Of a DNA stretch of 37,010 nucleotides, positions 3,496 to 37,010 are shown piece after piece. The notes under the pieces were generated by a model that saw only the letters and a list, made by a program, of their open reading frames with translations, did no database searches and was not told the origin of the DNA. The DNA is from a virus. Taxonomy: Duplodnaviria > Heunggongvirae > Uroviricota > Caudoviricetes. Each line of letters opens with the position of its first letter. The stretch's first letter is position 1. The position numbers were made by a program, and so were the translations under genes. The DNA is taken from IMG/VR virus record IMGVR_UViG_2778261177_000006. The stretch is one strand, 5' to 3'.

Positions 3496-4680
3496 ATGAG
3501 TGAAACTCGTTTTCATGGTGCCCGTGTTACGGAAAGTACCGACCTGGTAACAGCGATTAATGATGTTGATTCCAGTGTTATCGGTATCGTGGCAACGGCG
3601 GATGATGCGGATGCGGAGCTGTTCCCGCTGAACAAGCCCACACTGCTGACCCGCGTCAATGACGTGCTGGGAAAATGCGGAACAACGGGGACGCTTTATC
3701 GTGCGCTTAAGGCCATCGCAGACCAGGTGAGCACAAAGGTGATCGTCGTTCGCGTGGCTGAACACAAAGAAGAAGACGGAAAAACGCAGGATCAACTGGT
3801 TATCGGTGGTTCTGAATCTGACGGCAGCTATACGGGGATGTATGCGCTGCTTGTTGCAGAGCAGGATGAAAGCATCGGATACCGTCCGCGTATTCTGGCC
3901 GCGCCGGAGCTGGACACGGAGGCGGTAACAAAATCCCTGTGCGTGATTGCGGGTAAACTGCGCGCGTTTGTGTATGCCTCATGTCACGGCTGTAACACGA
4001 TGGCTGAGGCGATTACCTACCGCCAGAAATTCAACGAACGTGAGGTGATGCTCTTATGGCCGGACTTCATCGCCTACAACCCGAAAAGTGGCAAAAACGA
4101 AACGTTCCCCGCGCCTGCCTATGCGTGCGGCCTTCGTGCGTACATTGACCATGAGCAGGGCTGGCACAAATCGCTGTCCAACGTTCCGGTTAAAAATGTG
4201 CTGGGGATGTCCAGGCATGTGTTCTGGTCGTTGCAGGCCGAAGACAGTGATGCCAACAGCCTCAACAACAAAGAAATCACGACCATTATTCGTCGCAACG
4301 GGTTCCGCTTCTGGGGCAACCGCACCCCGGAAACGAACGCCTACATCTTTGAGGTGTATACCCGAACCGCACAGGTGCTGGCTGATTCAATTGCGGAAGC
4401 GCAGTTTGAAACCATCGACAGTCCACTGACGCCTGCGAACGTGAAAGATGTTATCAGTGCCATCAGGGCAAAACTGGATTCACTGGTTACTGCCGGGAAA
4501 CTGATTGGGGCGTCGTGCTGGTATGACGTGGTGGATAACGGCACCACGAATTTACGTCAGGGGCGCGTGCGTATTCGCTACAAATATACGCCTGTTCCCC
4601 CGCTGGAAGACATGGAGCTTTACCAGTCGTTTACTGATGAATTCTTTGGTCCCGCATTTGCGGTGCTGGGAGGTGCCTGA
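3496..4680 (+). CDS. FI: Contractile tail sheath protein (P2 FI-like, 394 aa)
   Basis: Size and position directly upstream of the tail tube gene; AAGGGG RBS 8 nt before the ATG; stop overlaps the next start (ATGA-type coupling). Confidence 0.9.
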   Translation: MSETRFHGARVTESTDLVTAINDVDSSVIGIVATADDADAELFPLNKPTLLTRVNDVLGKCGTTGTLYRALKAIADQVSTKVIVVRVAEHKEEDGKTQDQLVIGGSESDGSYTGMYALLVAEQDESIGYRPRILAAPELDTEAVTKSLCVIAGKLRAFVYASCHGCNTMAEAITYRQKFNEREVMLLWPDFIAYNPKSGKNETFPAPAYACGLRAYIDHEQGWHKSLSNVPVKNVLGMSRHVFWSLQAEDSDANSLNNKEITTIIRRNGFRFWGNRTPETNAYIFEVYTRTAQVLADSIAEAQFETIDSPLTPANVKDVISAIRAKLDSLVTAGKLIGASCWYDVVDNGTTNLRQGRVRIRYKYTPVPPLEDMELYQSFTDEFFGPAFAVLGGA

Positions 4681-32696: not shown

Positions 32697-33113
32697 CTAT
32701 GCGTTAAATACGGCACGTTGCGCGTCATCAATGAATACAGCTTGAGAGCGTTCTATCAGGCGGAGATTTGTCAGAAGCTCTGACTCTTTTGTGTGGTAAG
32801 GCGTTATCAGGTATTTGCCGTGCAGTTCGGCAATAATGGTGTATTGCGTCATTATTGCCGAACCAAGAATGTAAATGCGGCGTCCAATGCTGGACGGATT
32901 CATGGCTGCAACTGTTGACTGTGTTTTAAGAGTGTCGATTTCTTTGCCCTGTTCCTCAATAATTTTGGCTGCGTCAGCGGTGATTTTTGCGATGGTCAGT
33001 GCGTGAAGTGCTGCCATATGTTGGCTACGCTTCACGGCATCTTTAGCCATTTCATCTTCCGCTTCTGATATTTTTTTTAATGTGTTGATAATGCCTTCTT
33101 CTTTTGCGTTCAT
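32697..33113 (-). CDS. Hypothetical protein with N-terminal coiled coil, 138 aa
   Basis: ORF in a visibly AT-rich segment; no family recognised. Confidence 0.45.
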   Translation of the reverse strand: MNAKEEGIINTLKKISEAEDEMAKDAVKRSQHMAALHALTIAKITADAAKIIEEQGKEIDTLKTQSTVAAMNPSSIGRRIYILGSAIMTQYTIIAELHGKYLITPYHTKESELLTNLRLIERSQAVFIDDAQRAVFNA

Positions 33114-33205
33114 TTTATATCTCCATTATTTACGTGTGCGAATACCTCCGTTAATACGGATGGTTTTCACGTTTTCTTATTTAATTTGATGTTTTATTTG
33201 TATCG

Positions 33206-33319
33206 TTATTCATCAGAGAAAAAACGCTCGATCTTTTTCACTGAATTAATAATTCGCATAATCCCAATGGCGCAGACCACCGAAATAATCAGAATAAGCC
33301 ATGAGATAAAGATACTCAT
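33206..33319 (-). CDS. Small hydrophobic peptide, 37 aa (MSIFISWLILIISVVCAIGIMRIINSVKKIERFFSDE)
   Basis: Hand-translated; ATG overlaps the upstream stop (ATGA); single predicted transmembrane helix; below the ORF-track cutoff. Confidence 0.35.
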   Translation of the reverse strand: MSIFISWLILIISVVCAIGIMRIINSVKKIERFFSDE

Positions 33320-33558
33320 GCAATATTCCCCAGCTTATACGGTTCAATATGTTCCCCGCATTCTGCGGCACAGATCAGCTCGGAAAGTTCGTTAAGTGCA
33401 TCCAGATCATCAGCGTAAAAAGCCACGTCATACAGACTCCGGATTGCCCTGGTCAATGAGTCACGGGCTGCACGTTCAGCATGAGCGCCTGATGCACTTA
33501 AGCGAAAATAAAAACGCTCAAGTGCTTTATTAATGAGAGTTTTATATTCTTTGCCCAT
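33316..33558 (-). CDS. Hypothetical early protein, 80 aa
   Basis: ORF co-directional with the early operon; no family recognised. Confidence 0.45.
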   Translation of the reverse strand: MGKEYKTLINKALERFYFRLSASGAHAERAARDSLTRAIRSLYDVAFYADDLDALNELSELICAAECGEHIEPYKLGNIA

Positions 33559-33650: not shown

Positions 33651-33857
33651 CTATTCAGCTTCGCTAATGATTTCTCGTACGGTCTGGTACGGAAGTTCCA
33701 CAAGCAGTCGCGTGCCGTTCAGATAAACGTAAGTGGCTTCGTCGACTCCGTTTTTACCCGCCGGAGCCACTCCATCAATAGCGGATGCGCGTAATAACAG
33801 TTCACCGCGAAAATCAATAAAACGGATAAATACACCTTGTGCATGCTCTTTGGTCAT
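33651..33857 (-). CDS. Hypothetical early protein, about 68 aa (start at MTKEHAQ)
   Basis: Start chosen to avoid overlap with the upstream gene; no family recognised. Confidence 0.35.
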   Translation of the reverse strand: MTKEHAQGVFIRFIDFRGELLLRASAIDGVAPAGKNGVDEATYVYLNGTRLLVELPYQTVREIISEAE

Positions 33858-33867
33858 AAAGCACCTG

Positions 33868-34218
33868 TTATAAATCAGCCTGTTTAATAAAACTTTGTCC
33901 GCGAAGCAGACGATCAACCGTGCGTAGTGCTTCGTATAATGTGAAATCCTGCCCGAACTGATTGTCGCCGCTGCTTAGTGCAAAAATGCGATTTCCGGTA
34001 AACGGATTGCGTGGGCATTTATGGACCACGATTCCAGCTTTCTCAATCAGCCAGGAATGCTCGCCGATTTGTTTTACTGGGTGGCCATCCGGCGTTGCGT
34101 GTGTATCACTCAGGCTGTAGCGGATGTTGCTGCGTGATGCACTGGTAGCGAAACGGTTAGCATGGCGTTCCGCACCGTTGCGGAAGCGCTGCTGTGAAGA
34201 ATTGCGCTGTAGTTTCAT
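33868..34218 (-). CDS. Hypothetical early protein, 116 aa
   Basis: ORF co-directional with the early operon; no family recognised. Confidence 0.45.
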   Translation of the reverse strand: MKLQRNSSQQRFRNGAERHANRFATSASRSNIRYSLSDTHATPDGHPVKQIGEHSWLIEKAGIVVHKCPRNPFTGNRIFALSSGDNQFGQDFTLYEALRTVDRLLRGQSFIKQADL

Positions 34219-34353
34219 ATTAAAACTCTGTACCTTCGGTAAGGTGTACTCGTGTCACCTTGTATTGATTTGTGGTATTTTTTGTGTGTCTAGGACTTGG
34301 ACTGGCCGGTTCAGGTCCTGGCTTATGTTTAATTAAATTGTTTAGAGGTTTTC

Positions 34354-34545
34354 ATGTCAGAAGATAAAAAAGTTGTTAATTTGTTGAGTGAACTTAGTGC
34401 TGCTCTGGATAACATTAACTCTCCCAGGGTAAAAACGACGGGTGATAAAGACGCATTAAACGCAGAGATTCATATATTACTGGCGTTAGTAACTGACAAA
34501 ATTCAGCGTAAATACCCACCTGTCACACAACTGGTTGATTTTTAA
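34354..34545 (+). CDS. Hypothetical small protein, 63 aa, convergent with the neighbouring AT-rich gene
   Basis: AGAGG RBS before the ATG; shares a terminator hairpin with the convergent minus-strand gene; AT-rich. Confidence 0.45.
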   Translation: MSEDKKVVNLLSELSAALDNINSPRVKTTGDKDALNAEIHILLALVTDKIQRKYPPVTQLVDF

Positions 34546-34551
34546 TTTGAT

Positions 34552-34974
34552 TTATGCCGGGCTGCTCCCGGCATCTTCTAGCTGCCATAATGTCTCGTCA
34601 CCTGATAGAGCAAAACGAAATGAGTGAAGTATATCCTCCCGAGAGAAGCTCACGGCTACAGCTGCGGGAAAGTCAAATATAATCCCACCTTCATTTTTAA
34701 AACGATTACGCAATTGATAGGCTATCGGTTTGATTTGTGCAGGAAGAGTATCTATATCTCTTCCATTGACAACAGAATCTTTGTTTTCAAGTACTGATTT
34801 AGCGATTAGATATAGATGCCAGTAACTGGTTACAATTGTTACTCCTGTGATGTGTCGTAAATTAATTGCAATTCGTCCGTTATTATGTTTTTCCGCAAGG
34901 TATTTCAGGTTATCAATTAATGCTTGGTCATTTTTTGAAATAGTTATTGTGAAATCTGACGTGTTTGTTTTCAT
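34552..34974 (-). CDS. Hypothetical protein, about 141 aa (start at MKTNTSDF), AT-rich
   Basis: ATG one codon after the upstream stop; visibly low GC; no family recognised. Confidence 0.5.
   Translation of the reverse strand: MKTNTSDFTITISKNDQALIDNLKYLAEKHNNGRIAINLRHITGVTIVTSYWHLYLIAKSVLENKDSVVNGRDIDTLPAQIKPIAYQLRNRFKNEGGIIFDFPAAVAVSFSREDILHSFRFALSGDETLWQLEDAGSSPA
34554..34576. terminator. Bidirectional hairpin (gccgggctgctcccggc) between convergent genes
   Basis: Inverted repeat gccggg...cccggc located between the two stop codons. Confidence 0.45.
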
Positions 34975-34978
34975 ACGA

Positions 34979-35500
34979 TTAGTTGCCTCTGTTGTTTCTG
35001 AGTTGCTCCAGTTTTGAGCTTCTGCCTGTATAAATTCGCTTACCGTTAATGGTCTGGCAGTCTTCTTTATTAGCTGGAGAGAACTTCCTTTTCTGGCGGT
35101 CATACGTCCAGTAACTTTTCCAGTTGTGCCATTCTGGGGGCTCGTACTCTGGTAGCTCATCAGCCAACTTGTCCCACTCTTTGGCGTTAAACCACCATAC
35201 TCCGTCTGAGTTTTCATCTTCCGGGTTTGTGCGCGTTTTGTGTCCCGGCATTTGACCGCGATGAATGGCTACGCGCAGTGCAGATTTTGTTAGCCCAATA
35301 TATGCCGCGCCTTTTTCCAGAGAGCAAAGCCCGGCGATCGGACCATCCAGCCGTAAAGTCGCTCCTTTTTTGTAGGAACGCTTTTTCTTGTTTTCTTCGT
35401 GTTCGTCGTCGTTGGCGGCATCAGCGGGTTCGCCAATACCACCACTTTCCTGGAGTTGTTGAGTGTCAGATAACTCTTTATCGGCAATGATGTCCCGCAT
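34979..35500 (-). CDS. First early-operon gene, putative HTH DNA-binding regulator (Cox/Apl position), 173 aa
   Basis: Divergent from the C repressor gene; helix-turn-helix-like segment (AAYIGLTKSALRVAIHRGQMPG); much longer than P2 Cox, so function assigned by position only. Confidence 0.45.
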   Translation of the reverse strand: MRDIIADKELSDTQQLQESGGIGEPADAANDDEHEENKKKRSYKKGATLRLDGPIAGLCSLEKGAAYIGLTKSALRVAIHRGQMPGHKTRTNPEDENSDGVWWFNAKEWDKLADELPEYEPPEWHNWKSYWTYDRQKRKFSPANKEDCQTINGKRIYTGRSSKLEQLRNNRGN

Positions 35501-35600
35501 TTGTTATCCTCTTGCGTTGGTGCGCTTGTCGCGCCTTGTGATTGATTGTTTTGGTTTGTCTAATGTCGAGATTACGACACTTTAAGAGGATTTTAGTGGT
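35501..35600. promoter_or_regulatory. Immunity switch region between the divergent early operon and the C repressor gene
   Basis: 100-bp intergenic stretch between divergent starts; contains short direct repeats (cttgcg / cttgtcgcg / ccttgtg, gattgattgtt) but operators were not defined. Confidence 0.5.
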
Positions 35601-35948
35601 ATGAATTCGACACTGTCAACGTGTATCGGCGAAAAAATTTTATTGATTCGAAAAAGTGAAGGGCTGACAAGAAAGCAATTCTTTGAACTTACAGGGATTC
35701 CGGTTAATACCCAAAGATACTACGAAACCGGAAGACAGGAAGGGATAGGGAGTGAAATTTTGTTAAAGATTACAAAGAATTCACGACTCAAAAAATATGC
35801 GCTTTGGTTAACGACAGATGAAACATTTGAAGCCGGAGGGCAAATCGCCCCGGCTCTCTCTCTTGATGGCTCTATTCAGTCGGAGGACGATCAGGTTTCA
35901 ATCGGCATTACCCAAAAATCACCCCGATCAGGCCGCAATGTTGGCTGA
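35601..35948 (+). CDS. C: P2 C-type immunity repressor (115 aa)
   Basis: EKILLIRKSEGLTRKQFFELTGIPVNTQRYYETGRQ and KYALWLTTDETFEAGGQIAPAL match the P2 C pattern (EKIVLMRKSE...LTGVP...YYESGR; KYTLWFMT...GQIAPAL); directly upstream of the integrase. Confidence 0.8.
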   Translation: MNSTLSTCIGEKILLIRKSEGLTRKQFFELTGIPVNTQRYYETGRQEGIGSEILLKITKNSRLKKYALWLTTDETFEAGGQIAPALSLDGSIQSEDDQVSIGITQKSPRSGRNVG

Positions 35949-36017
35949 CTTTACACATTGAGCGAATTACATATCGCAAGGAGTGTTTAGTTAATTTATC
36001 CGTTGGAGGGGCTAATC

Positions 36018-37010
36018 ATGTCGATTAAGCAACTCAAAGACGGACGTTATCAGGTCGATATCAGACCGCAGGGGGCGGAAGGAAAGCGGATTCGAAAAAT
36101 CTTTGCCCTGAAATCAAAGGCTCAGGAGTTTGAGAAGTATGTGTTACAGAACTTTCATGACAAGCCATGGCAGGCTAAGCCAGCTGATCAGCGGCGATTA
36201 TCAGAGCTGCTTGATGCGTGGTGGATGCTTGATGGGCGTAATCAGGCTTACGGGGATAGCTACAGGGTTAGGCTAGGGAAGGTTGTTCGTGAAATGGGAG
36301 ATCCTCGCGCCAGTCAGATGACGCGAAAATTTATGCTTGAATATCGGTCAGAGAAATTACAGGCCGGCTTAATGCCGTCCAGTATTAATCGTGACTTATG
36401 CGTACTGTCTACCATGTTCACGGTGCTGATTGAAGCTGAGGTCTTTCACAACGCGAACCCTGTACGCGGTATACGAAAACTGAAAGTTCAGAACACAGAG
36501 ATGGCCTTTCTTTCTGATGATGAGATTGAACGGCTTCTTGAGCGACTGGAGGGTGATGCGCGTCGTGTTGCCATTCTGTGTCTTTCTACTGGTGCCCGAT
36601 GGAGTGAAGCATCGGAACTACGTGGAGAGCATATCGTTGGCAACCGGGTGACGTTCTTTAACACCAAAAACGGAAAATCCCGTTCGGTTCCTGTGGCGGA
36701 TTCGGTCGTGCCTCTGATTAAAACCCGTCGAACGGGGTTATTGTATCAGGTTGATTATCTGAAGTTCCGGGAGATTCTTCAGGAGGTGAAACCGGATTTG
36801 CCGAAGGGGCAGGCTACGCATGTCATGCGTCATACATTTGCCACACACTTTATGATGAATGGCGGAAATATTGTTACGTTGCAACGAATCCTGGGGCACG
36901 CAACGATTCAGCAAACAATGACGTACGCTCATTTTTCGCCGGACTTCTTACAGGACGCGATCAACTTTAATCCGCTGGCTGAAAGTGTCCATAAACTGTC
37001 CATCGATTAG
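36018..37010 (+). CDS. int: Tyrosine integrase, P2 Int family (about 330 aa, start at MSIKQLKDGRY)
   Basis: N-terminal MSIKQLKDGRYQVDIRP as in P2 Int; C-terminal catalytic box HVMRHTFATHF...LGHATIQQTMTYAHF (His-x-x-Arg ... Tyr); GGAGGGG RBS; stop is the last codon of the window. Confidence 0.9.
   Translation: MSIKQLKDGRYQVDIRPQGAEGKRIRKIFALKSKAQEFEKYVLQNFHDKPWQAKPADQRRLSELLDAWWMLDGRNQAYGDSYRVRLGKVVREMGDPRASQMTRKFMLEYRSEKLQAGLMPSSINRDLCVLSTMFTVLIEAEVFHNANPVRGIRKLKVQNTEMAFLSDDEIERLLERLEGDARRVAILCLSTGARWSEASELRGEHIVGNRVTFFNTKNGKSRSVPVADSVVPLIKTRRTGLLYQVDYLKFREILQEVKPDLPKGQATHVMRHTFATHFMMNGGNIVTLQRILGHATIQQTMTYAHFSPDFLQDAINFNPLAESVHKLSID

Follow-up and report, generated by a model that had tools for sequence, protein, structure and literature searches.

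Gene content of the locus

The stretch of DNA analysed here (hereafter the window) comprises 37,010 nt of the viral record IMGVR_UViG_2778261177_000006 (Caudoviricetes), and its right end carries the immunity and early region of a P2-like prophage. By DNA comparison the element groups with the P88-like phages (Xuanwuvirus, Peduoviridae) of E. coli. Between its cox-like first early gene and the start of a gene for a DUF4761 (domain of unknown function) protein lies an AT-rich cassette with two convergent open reading frames (ORFs) of 140 and 63 amino acids (aa), ORF140 and ORF63; cox sits directly upstream of ORF140 on the same strand. The features of the locus are compiled in Table 1. As judged from its sequence and that of its relatives, this is a real, well-delimited and conserved two-gene cassette encoding undescribed protein families in a distinctive regulatory layout. 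It would represent prophage accessory or moron cargo, possibly of a toxin–antitoxin (TA)-like or immunity-like kind.

Table 1. Features of the cassette and its surroundings (positions refer to the window)
Feature	Position	Strand	Remarks
Whole AT-rich accessory cassette	34226-34978	both	between DUF4761 start codon region and cox stop codon; GC 0.384
-35-like GTGTCA	34252-34257	+	prediction; 18 nt upstream of TGGTATTTT
Extended -10-like motif TGGTATTTT, putative ORF63 promoter	34273-34281	+	prediction
Strand-specific hairpin at predicted 5′ end of ORF63 transcript	34290-34321	+	relies on G-U pairs
ORF63 ribosome-binding site AGAGG	34344-34348	+	5 nt before ATG; AGG/GGA kept at the same place in alignment A4
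ORF63	34354-34545	+	acidic soluble protein of 63 aa; faces ORF140; co-oriented with C and int
ORF140	34552-34974	-	140 aa; starts 4 nt past cox stop
Terminator-like hairpin of ORF63, ATGCCGGG-CTGCT-CCCGGCAT	34554-34574	+	fold prediction; 8-bp stem, tail CTTCT
cox-like first early gene	34979-35500	-	173 aa; Pfam Phage_Cox 3.2e-07; phrog_23196 5.7e-112, positions 1-173 of 174-position profile
Early promoter (Pe) candidate: TTGACA, 18-nt spacer, TAAAAT	35590-35619	-	sequence prediction; 11/12 matches
C-type helix-turn-helix repressor	35601-35948	+	
Integrase (int)	36003-37010	+	

Composition, boundaries and distribution of the cassette

The segment from 34250 to 34975 has a GC content of 0.379 compared to 0.528 for the whole window. 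This is essentially the window minimum, as low a value being found in only 0.1% of 726-nt windows. The break is also visible at third codon positions (GC3), with 0.29 for the large and 0.31 for the small ORF versus 0.51 for cox, 0.49 for the DUF4761 gene and 0.51 for int. A first-pass annotation, made by a model from the letters alone, had singled out this segment as an AT-rich insert next to the immunity region, and the calculated values bear out the compositional difference. The opposite outcome that it had allowed for, a backbone-like composition together with conserved core genes of assigned function, does not describe the locus: its GC content differs, and the cassette is absent from phage P88.

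Homology of the window to P88 stops at position 34225, just beyond the DUF4761 start. As the DUF4761 gene directly follows cox in P88, with no cassette in between, the segment is variable cargo. P88_4B11 and E. coli ETEC4085 lack it as well. Other cargo is found in their cox-DUF4761 slot, namely a 68-aa ORF on the early strand at 3663-3869 of locus L003 (P88_4B11) and at 1584-1790 of locus L037 (ETEC4085); the ETEC4085 translation is hydrophobic. Because different small ORFs occupy this position in other P88-like prophages, the slot behind cox behaves as a small variable locus. The comparison supports the placement of a compositionally foreign, variable insert beside the immunity region, as the annotation had suggested.

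At an identity of at least 99% the cassette occurs in 270 of 5426 complete E. coli genomes (~5%), many of them belonging to sequence type 131 (ST131), always as a single copy and always on the chromosome. Three deposited phage genomes carry it. The backbone DUF4761 gene was found in 1342 genomes and this cox type in 311.

One variant, locus L004 of E. coli PRO_A-1504-6M-A_ESBL, has the same cox joined to the left flank and lacks exactly positions 34295-34981, its segment 2537-3094 being equivalent to window positions 34256-34294 plus 34982-35500. Here cox is extended by 12 residues (LDTQKIPQINTR) and runs into what is the small-gene promoter region in the window; the resulting Cox has 185 aa, compared to a 174-position family profile and 173-174 aa in close relatives. 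We considered whether L004 might be the empty site, with 34295-34981 as an insertion into the 3′ end of cox, and dropped this reading: a Cox of 173 aa is the family norm, the form occurs in only one or two genomes and the conserved small-gene promoter motif falls outside the missing stretch. For these reasons L004 is more likely a deletion that fused cox to the ORF63 promoter region. It could provide a natural cassette-minus control strain.

Relatives of the two genes

A full HMMER search against 1.8 billion representative proteins yielded the first distant relatives of ORF140, P0013 (34% identity) and P0016 (30%), and a follow-up profile search added about ten more related clusters, all of them from E. 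coli or Salmonella enterica. The ORF140 homologues P0013 and P0016-P0023 are 21-35% identical and are encoded at the same position in other P2-like prophages; the homologues of ORF63 have 60-64 aa and are 24-40% identical. In nine distinct contexts from E. coli and Salmonella prophages (the window and loci L038, L005, L007, L018, L021, L023, L017 and L035) both frames have stayed open at protein identities of 21-40%. All nine are early regions of P2-like prophages; the upstream genes, of Cox or Cro type, vary, as do those downstream. For moderately diverged pairs the ratio of nonsynonymous to synonymous substitution rates (dN/dS) is 0.21-0.24 in the large gene and 0.11-0.34 in the small one.

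Every large protein of 131-149 aa is accompanied by a convergent gene for 60-64 aa, and the pair is intact and adjacent in 9/9 loci. The large and the small genes put the seven compared loci into the same clades, and no recombinant joining a small gene to a foreign large gene was seen. As read from these alignments, the pair has been inherited as one unit across different cox types and downstream genes, and both ORFs are real genes of previously undescribed families.

A word-indexed search of 5.8 billion proteins returned only near-identical E. coli copies, a scan of the GTDB species representatives found neither family and a metagenome scan returned only the E. coli version. A tblastn comparison of 50,697 phage genomes with the proteins of Salmonella and L038 type gave no match, nor did a literature search with the protein accessions. 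Neither ORF has a significant match in Pfam, PHROGs, PADLOC, NCBIfam or the PDB sequences, the last being searched with single sequences and with profiles, which agrees with the first-pass description of two convergent ORFs of unrecognised family. When the first four of these libraries were applied to the neighbours and to the partner genes of the relatives, only DUF or unknown families were found. An AlphaFold model of ORF140 from the single sequence was of poor quality (pLDDT 36.5); with an alignment of 11 sequences a moderate model was obtained (pLDDT 60.6, pTM 0.55), which gave no fold match. The remote-homology and structure checks that the annotation had proposed thus uncovered distant relatives but no known family or fold.

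The ORF140-like domain is also found fused to two different C-terminal domains, in proteins of 225 and 234 aa. One C-terminal domain, C1, is common to the proteins L7_225 and L5_259 and is accompanied by a convergent 103-aa gene in both cases (2/2) despite different N-terminal domains; a convergent 168-aa gene accompanies the phrog_10410 C-terminal domain in two of the four proteins carrying it. Such arrangements form a second type of convergent pair, located just downstream in Salmonella prophages (L005 6766-7804, L007 6001-6937, L022 4001-5237 and L023 4754-6068). Forward genes for 225-260 aa face reverse genes for 103 or 168 aa, some overlapping by 53 nt, and the forward genes are made of shuffled domains, an ORF140-like or other N-terminal domain being combined with one of two C-terminal domains.

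Two further observations concern individual relatives. The Salmonella cassettes (L005 5876-5989, L021 3873-3986 and L007 5102-5233) contain a conserved hydrophobic ORF of 37-43 aa that resembles a single transmembrane segment (e.g. MYDLKNLCIDILAIIAIACLSTVLMAATIKFIITYLF) and ends 11 nt before the large-gene start; the cassette of the window has no equivalent. A very divergent cassette with genes for 131 and 64 aa is located behind a 174-aa Cox in E. coli JNEC-KY174 (L038 1163-1766). It keeps the TTY..H and KYP motifs and has a canonical small-gene terminator.

ORF140 as part of the early operon

The cox stop codon (TAA, 34979-34981) is separated by TCGT from the ORF140 start codon (ATG, 34974-34972), which lies in a different frame. 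The earlier annotation had let the large gene start one codon after the cox stop and counted 141 residues; both statements need correction, while the length of 63 aa given for the small gene is right. No gap upstream of ORF140 could hold a promoter of its own. From this arrangement ORF140 is read as belonging to the cox transcript, and it is consequently predicted to be silenced by the C repressor in the lysogen and to be made only after infection or induction. The strong Pe candidate would be the promoter for cox, ORF140 and the remaining early genes. The protein is hydrophilic (grand average of hydropathy -0.19), and nothing points to its secretion. Searches of Pfam and NCBIfam and the fold comparison detected no helix-turn-helix or other DNA-binding domain.

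ORF63 and its expression signals

ORF63 and its homologues are hydrophilic proteins with isoelectric points of 4.5-5.6. Invariant positions in the family are M1, D4, K6, L10, L11, A17, L18 and K53-Y54-P55, corresponding to an N-terminal MxxDxK..LL motif, an AL pair and a C-terminal KYP. The protein has neither a membrane segment nor an enzymatic domain.

In each of the nine loci the 140 nt upstream of the small gene contain exactly one TGnTAnnnT. It is found 66-72 nt before the ATG in eight of them and 34 nt before it in L038, and its columns are invariant in alignment A4. The putative ORF63 promoter faces the Pe candidate at a distance of ~1.3 kb. At the predicted 5′ end of the transcript an 81-nt fragment (34280-34360) folds at -21.5 kcal/mol on the plus strand compared to -7.8 kcal/mol on the minus strand, a difference due to the G-U pairs of the hairpin. 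Similar hairpins are located upstream of the small gene in the Salmonella loci. In L038 the TGGTATTCT motif follows the upstream hairpin instead of preceding it. A predicted promoter and a terminator-like hairpin, together with a stem-loop at the 5′ end and a strong ribosome-binding site, allow ORF63 to be read from the aligned sequences as a self-contained unit on the opposite strand.

A probable terminator inside the partner gene

The first-pass annotation had described a hairpin shared by the two genes. Such a hairpin exists, though not between the stop codons, which are only 6 nt apart: it begins 8 nt past the ORF63 stop and is located within the last 7 codons of ORF140. In most relatives the stop codons overlap by 4 nt; in the others they are a few nt apart. 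Taken alone, the hairpin is unexceptional in comparison to shuffled sequences (z = -0.96 on the plus and -1.92 on the minus strand; -1.96 on the minus strand in a wider 81-nt fragment). Its position recurs, however: all nine cassettes have a GC-rich hairpin with a T-rich tail 8-35 nt past the small-gene stop. The lineages have hairpins of different sequence, but the site is always within the codons for the C terminus of the oppositely oriented large gene. Canonical U-tract tails are present in L038, L007, L021 and L023, whereas the tail in the window is weaker. Rfam covariance models (oop, small RNAs and others) gave no match at E <=1 in the region 33800-35700.

In the direction of the early operon the same hairpins have no U-tract, so that early transcription can pass through. 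In P2 the early transcription must continue to the downstream replication genes, and the missing early-strand U-tract would fit this need for read-through. The shared hairpin is best described, on the pattern seen across the loci, as the small gene's terminator, encoded in the coding sequence of its partner.

A proposed division of labour between lysogeny and lytic growth

The best explanation of these sequence features is that the cassette is a mobile accessory unit of two genes that P2-like (Peduoviridae) prophages carry directly behind cox, where their early lytic operon begins. As to its role, we tentatively favour, with limited confidence, a pair of antagonists separated by life-cycle phase, in which an early-lytic effector and a small acidic neutraliser expressed in the lysogen would be mutually exclusive through convergent transcription. 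ORF140 would be made from Pe together with cox and be off in the lysogen, whereas ORF63, co-oriented with C and int, would be active in the lysogen. Convergent promoters of phage 186 and the cII/oop arrangement of lambda are the basis for expecting exclusion: with the putative ORF63 promoter directed at Pe and the ORF63 transcript running into the 3′ end of ORF140, mutually exclusive expression is predicted. Once Pe fires, ORF63 would be suppressed by convergent transcription. Its own transcript would be antisense to the 3′ end of ORF140, and in the window possibly to more of it, the terminator tail being weak. ORF140 might then act in host takeover or be toxic to the cell, and ORF63 might guard the lysogen against leaky early transcription.

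The sizes and charges are in line with such roles, a neutraliser being represented by the small acidic protein and an effector by the protein of ~140 aa. In the long relatives, moreover, the 103-aa reverse partner tracks the C1 domain of the forward proteins, and the 168-aa one goes with the phrog_10410 domain in two of four cases. Several points weigh against this proposal. The libraries searched contain no homologue or fold match among toxins, antitoxins, immunity, defence or anti-defence proteins, and the explanation therefore draws on gene architecture; the better of the two AlphaFold models is itself only moderate (pLDDT 60.6). The ORF63 promoter, its activity in the lysogen and an interaction of the two proteins are predictions, and the tail of the window terminator is weak. 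Co-inheritance could partly come from the location of the small-gene terminator inside the large gene. Finally, the two genes differ in how they occur: every small gene encountered had a large gene next to it, while the large-gene domain does occur alone. It is present without an ORF63 homologue in L022, as part of a 225-aa fusion in L007, and as divergent tandem paralogues in L023 (3536-3955, 139 aa, and 4001-4444, 147 aa; 29% identical), where a single small convergent gene follows only the second copy. This asymmetry fits the reverse polarity at least as well.

Under reverse polarity ORF63 would be a defence or exclusion effector that the lysogen directs against incoming, probably related, phages, ORF140 the early factor of self-immunity, and orphan genes of the ORF140 type counter-defences. 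We consider this arrangement unlikely, though a serious competitor. A small gene that always travels with the large one (9/9) and a large domain that is found alone, fused or duplicated (L022, L007, L023) form the pattern expected of immunity genes, so that the orphans slightly favour it; as the first gene after cox, ORF140 would also appear at a suitable time for a neutraliser. Precedents are BstA/aba, a prophage defence gene with cognate self-immunity (PMC8585504), and the antisense exclusion factor STnc6030 (PMC7067206). However, the orphan sample is tiny, with only three cases, PADLOC gave no match, and a soluble acidic protein of 63 aa without membrane segment or enzymatic domain would be an unusual defence effector.

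It is rather improbable that the two genes have nothing to do with each other, ORF140 being an early accessory protein (e.g. for anti-defence or host takeover) and ORF63 an unrelated lysogenic-conversion moron that is linked to it via the embedded terminator. The terminator does lie inside the coding end of the large gene in 9/9 loci, the ORF140-like domain occurs in contexts without the small gene, and accessory regions of phages are often mosaics of unrelated ORFans. Yet such a link would concern the last codons, whereas the large gene shares the grouping of the small gene over its entire length, in spite of different flanks. The lack of any small gene paired with a foreign large gene and the 4-nt overlap of the stop codons in most relatives also argue against independence.

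A third alternative, a regulatory module for the lysis-lysogeny decision like cII/pE of phage 186 or cII/oop of lambda, appears quite improbable. ORF140 would be the regulator. Pe or the cox mRNA would be subject to interference by the leftward transcript of ORF63, which could also continue towards C and int. The slot directly after the Cox/Apl gene is the position of cII in phage 186, and to that extent ORF140 sits where a CII-type regulator would; the absence of a detectable DNA-binding domain, helix-turn-helix included, speaks against this function. ORF63 is oriented like C and int, just one other plus-strand site on the way to C, at 35519-35535, resembles a terminator, and there are known RNAs of the oop type that run antisense to the cII 3′ end (PMC7067206). 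ORF63, however, is a protein under purifying selection and not only an RNA, a canonical terminator directly follows the small-gene stop in most relatives, many functional relatives such as P88 do without the cassette, and its AT-richness and patchy distribution are typical of cargo and not of core regulation.

That the ORFs are functionless chance frames in an AT-rich non-coding insert or a gene remnant is hardly credible: database homologues are indeed confined to E. coli and Salmonella prophages and the single-sequence structure model is poor, but frames open at such low identity in nine contexts, the dN/dS values given above and conserved start codons, ribosome-binding sites and motifs led us to reject it.

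Returning to the phase-separated antagonists, one may ask whether they exemplify a new class of prophage gene pairs, in which a lytic-only protein and a lysogen-only, antisense and self-terminated small gene are expressed on an either-or basis, serving as defence with self-immunity or as a takeover toxin with a lysogenic antidote. The relatives with exchanged C-terminal domains and 103- or 168-aa partners would then make up a polymorphic family in P2-like phages of Enterobacteriaceae. This generalization is doubtful, although conceivable.

Immunity region and early operon around the cassette

The C repressor of the window is only 59% identical to the C protein of the 270 genomes with which it shares cox (~96%) and the cassette (>=99%, i.e. 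at least 99%). The divergence is concentrated in the N-terminal helix-turn-helix half. For the region 35560-35837, which comprises this half and the operator region, complete E. coli genomes contain no good match, the best one reaching 84.5%. The prophage thus appears to be a heteroimmune mosaic with a rare immunity specificity. Between the cox start and the region of Pe and the repressor promoter Pc, a plus-strand terminator-like hairpin is found at 35519-35535 (GGTGCGCTTGTCGCGCC followed by TTGTGATT), which could insulate C from plus-strand transcription coming out of the cassette. A second AT-rich stretch is present in the early operon at 33000-33450 (GC 0.36-0.40); within it are the beginning of an ORF for 138 aa (phrog_9338), an intergenic gap and a hydrophobic 37-aa ORF (33206-33319), annotated as a membrane protein in P88.

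Significance

The cassette is present in ~5% of complete E. coli genomes, among them a large part of the pandemic ST131 lineage, yet both of its proteins are annotated only as hypothetical. Hotspots of P2-like phages are known elsewhere; the slot directly behind cox is an as yet uncharacterised site. Should an effector and its neutraliser indeed be split by life-cycle phase, the cassette would add two new protein families and a compact regulatory design, an antisense, self-terminated gene with its terminator coded inside the partner, that can be searched for in other phages. If the genes are independent, the locus would still be a clear and well-bounded example of a moron lying antisense within an essential operon.

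Comparison with known systems

Pore-forming colicin operons, which Cascales et al. are said to have described in 2007 as carrying a convergent and constitutively expressed immunity gene, resemble the cassette in two respects. A gene that depends on derepression stands beside a small convergent gene with its own, here predicted, promoter, and, among the long relatives, the choice of reverse partner goes with the variable C-terminal domain of its forward counterpart. They differ in that there is no similarity of sequence or fold, ORF63 is soluble and acidic and not a membrane protein, and control is exerted here by the phage C repressor and Pe and not by LexA.

Type I TA systems (par/Fst and the B. 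subtilis prophage pairs txpA/ratA and bsrG/SR4) and lambda cII/oop, a precedent described in PMC7067206, have in common with the cassette, as predicted from its DNA sequence, the convergent units, the 3′ overlap around a shared hairpin and the prophage setting. The 3′ ends of the two genes abut or overlap, and the putative small-gene terminator is located within the large gene. However, a type I system consists of a small hydrophobic toxin and a non-coding RNA antitoxin, whereas the reverse unit here encodes a conserved protein and not only an RNA, and ORF140 is a hydrophilic protein of 140 aa and not a small hydrophobic peptide. An additional hydrophobic ORF of 37 aa upstream is carried only by the Salmonella cassettes. 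Type II systems are co-directional, autoregulated operons, while the two genes here are convergent, ORF140 belonging to the cox operon and ORF63 having predicted signals of its own on the other strand; Pfam, NCBIfam, PADLOC, PHROGs and the PDB sequences gave no homology to toxin or antitoxin families, and no fold match was found. The defence models of PADLOC-DB 2.0 returned zero families for both ORFs at E up to 1. This comparison does not support a place for the cassette among the type II or type I TA systems or the listed defence systems.

The first-pass annotation had proposed a TA, exclusion or anti-defence function. Of this, the status as cargo and the existence of real genes forming one unit hold up; homology or a fold match is lacking, and the arrangement is not that of type II. 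The proposal is a reasonable hypothesis that the architecture makes more specific.

P2-like prophages are reservoirs of anti-phage and anti-satellite functions. The cassette shares with their accessory hotspots (PMC9122126, PMC13586616) that it is accessory cargo beside the immunity region, within the integrase-to-primase interval; a minor integrase-primase defence hotspot has been reported to hold 8% of P2 systems (PMC13586616). The classical hotspots, in contrast, are located between gpA and gpQ, where tin/old is known, and in the tail gene region downstream of gpL. Prophage defence genes differ further in that the cassette has no PADLOC match and both of its genes are far smaller than typical defence systems.

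A further counterpart is the moron as defined by Hendrix, a gene with its own promoter and terminator that is inserted between backbone genes and expressed from the prophage. ORF63 has a predicted TGnTAnnnT promoter and a hairpin with T-tail in 9/9 loci as well as a ribosome-binding site. The composition is distinct (GC 0.38 compared to ~0.5, or 0.49-0.50 in the flanking genes), and presence among close relatives is patchy: P88, P88_4B11 and ETEC4085 lack the cassette, and 270 genomes carry it compared to 1342 with the backbone DUF4761 gene. Judged in silico, ORF63 would be a moron by this definition. It departs from the usual form in being embedded antisense in an early operon that is essential, in its invariable coupling to another gene of that operon, ORF140, and in having its predicted terminator encoded in the coding sequence of this partner.

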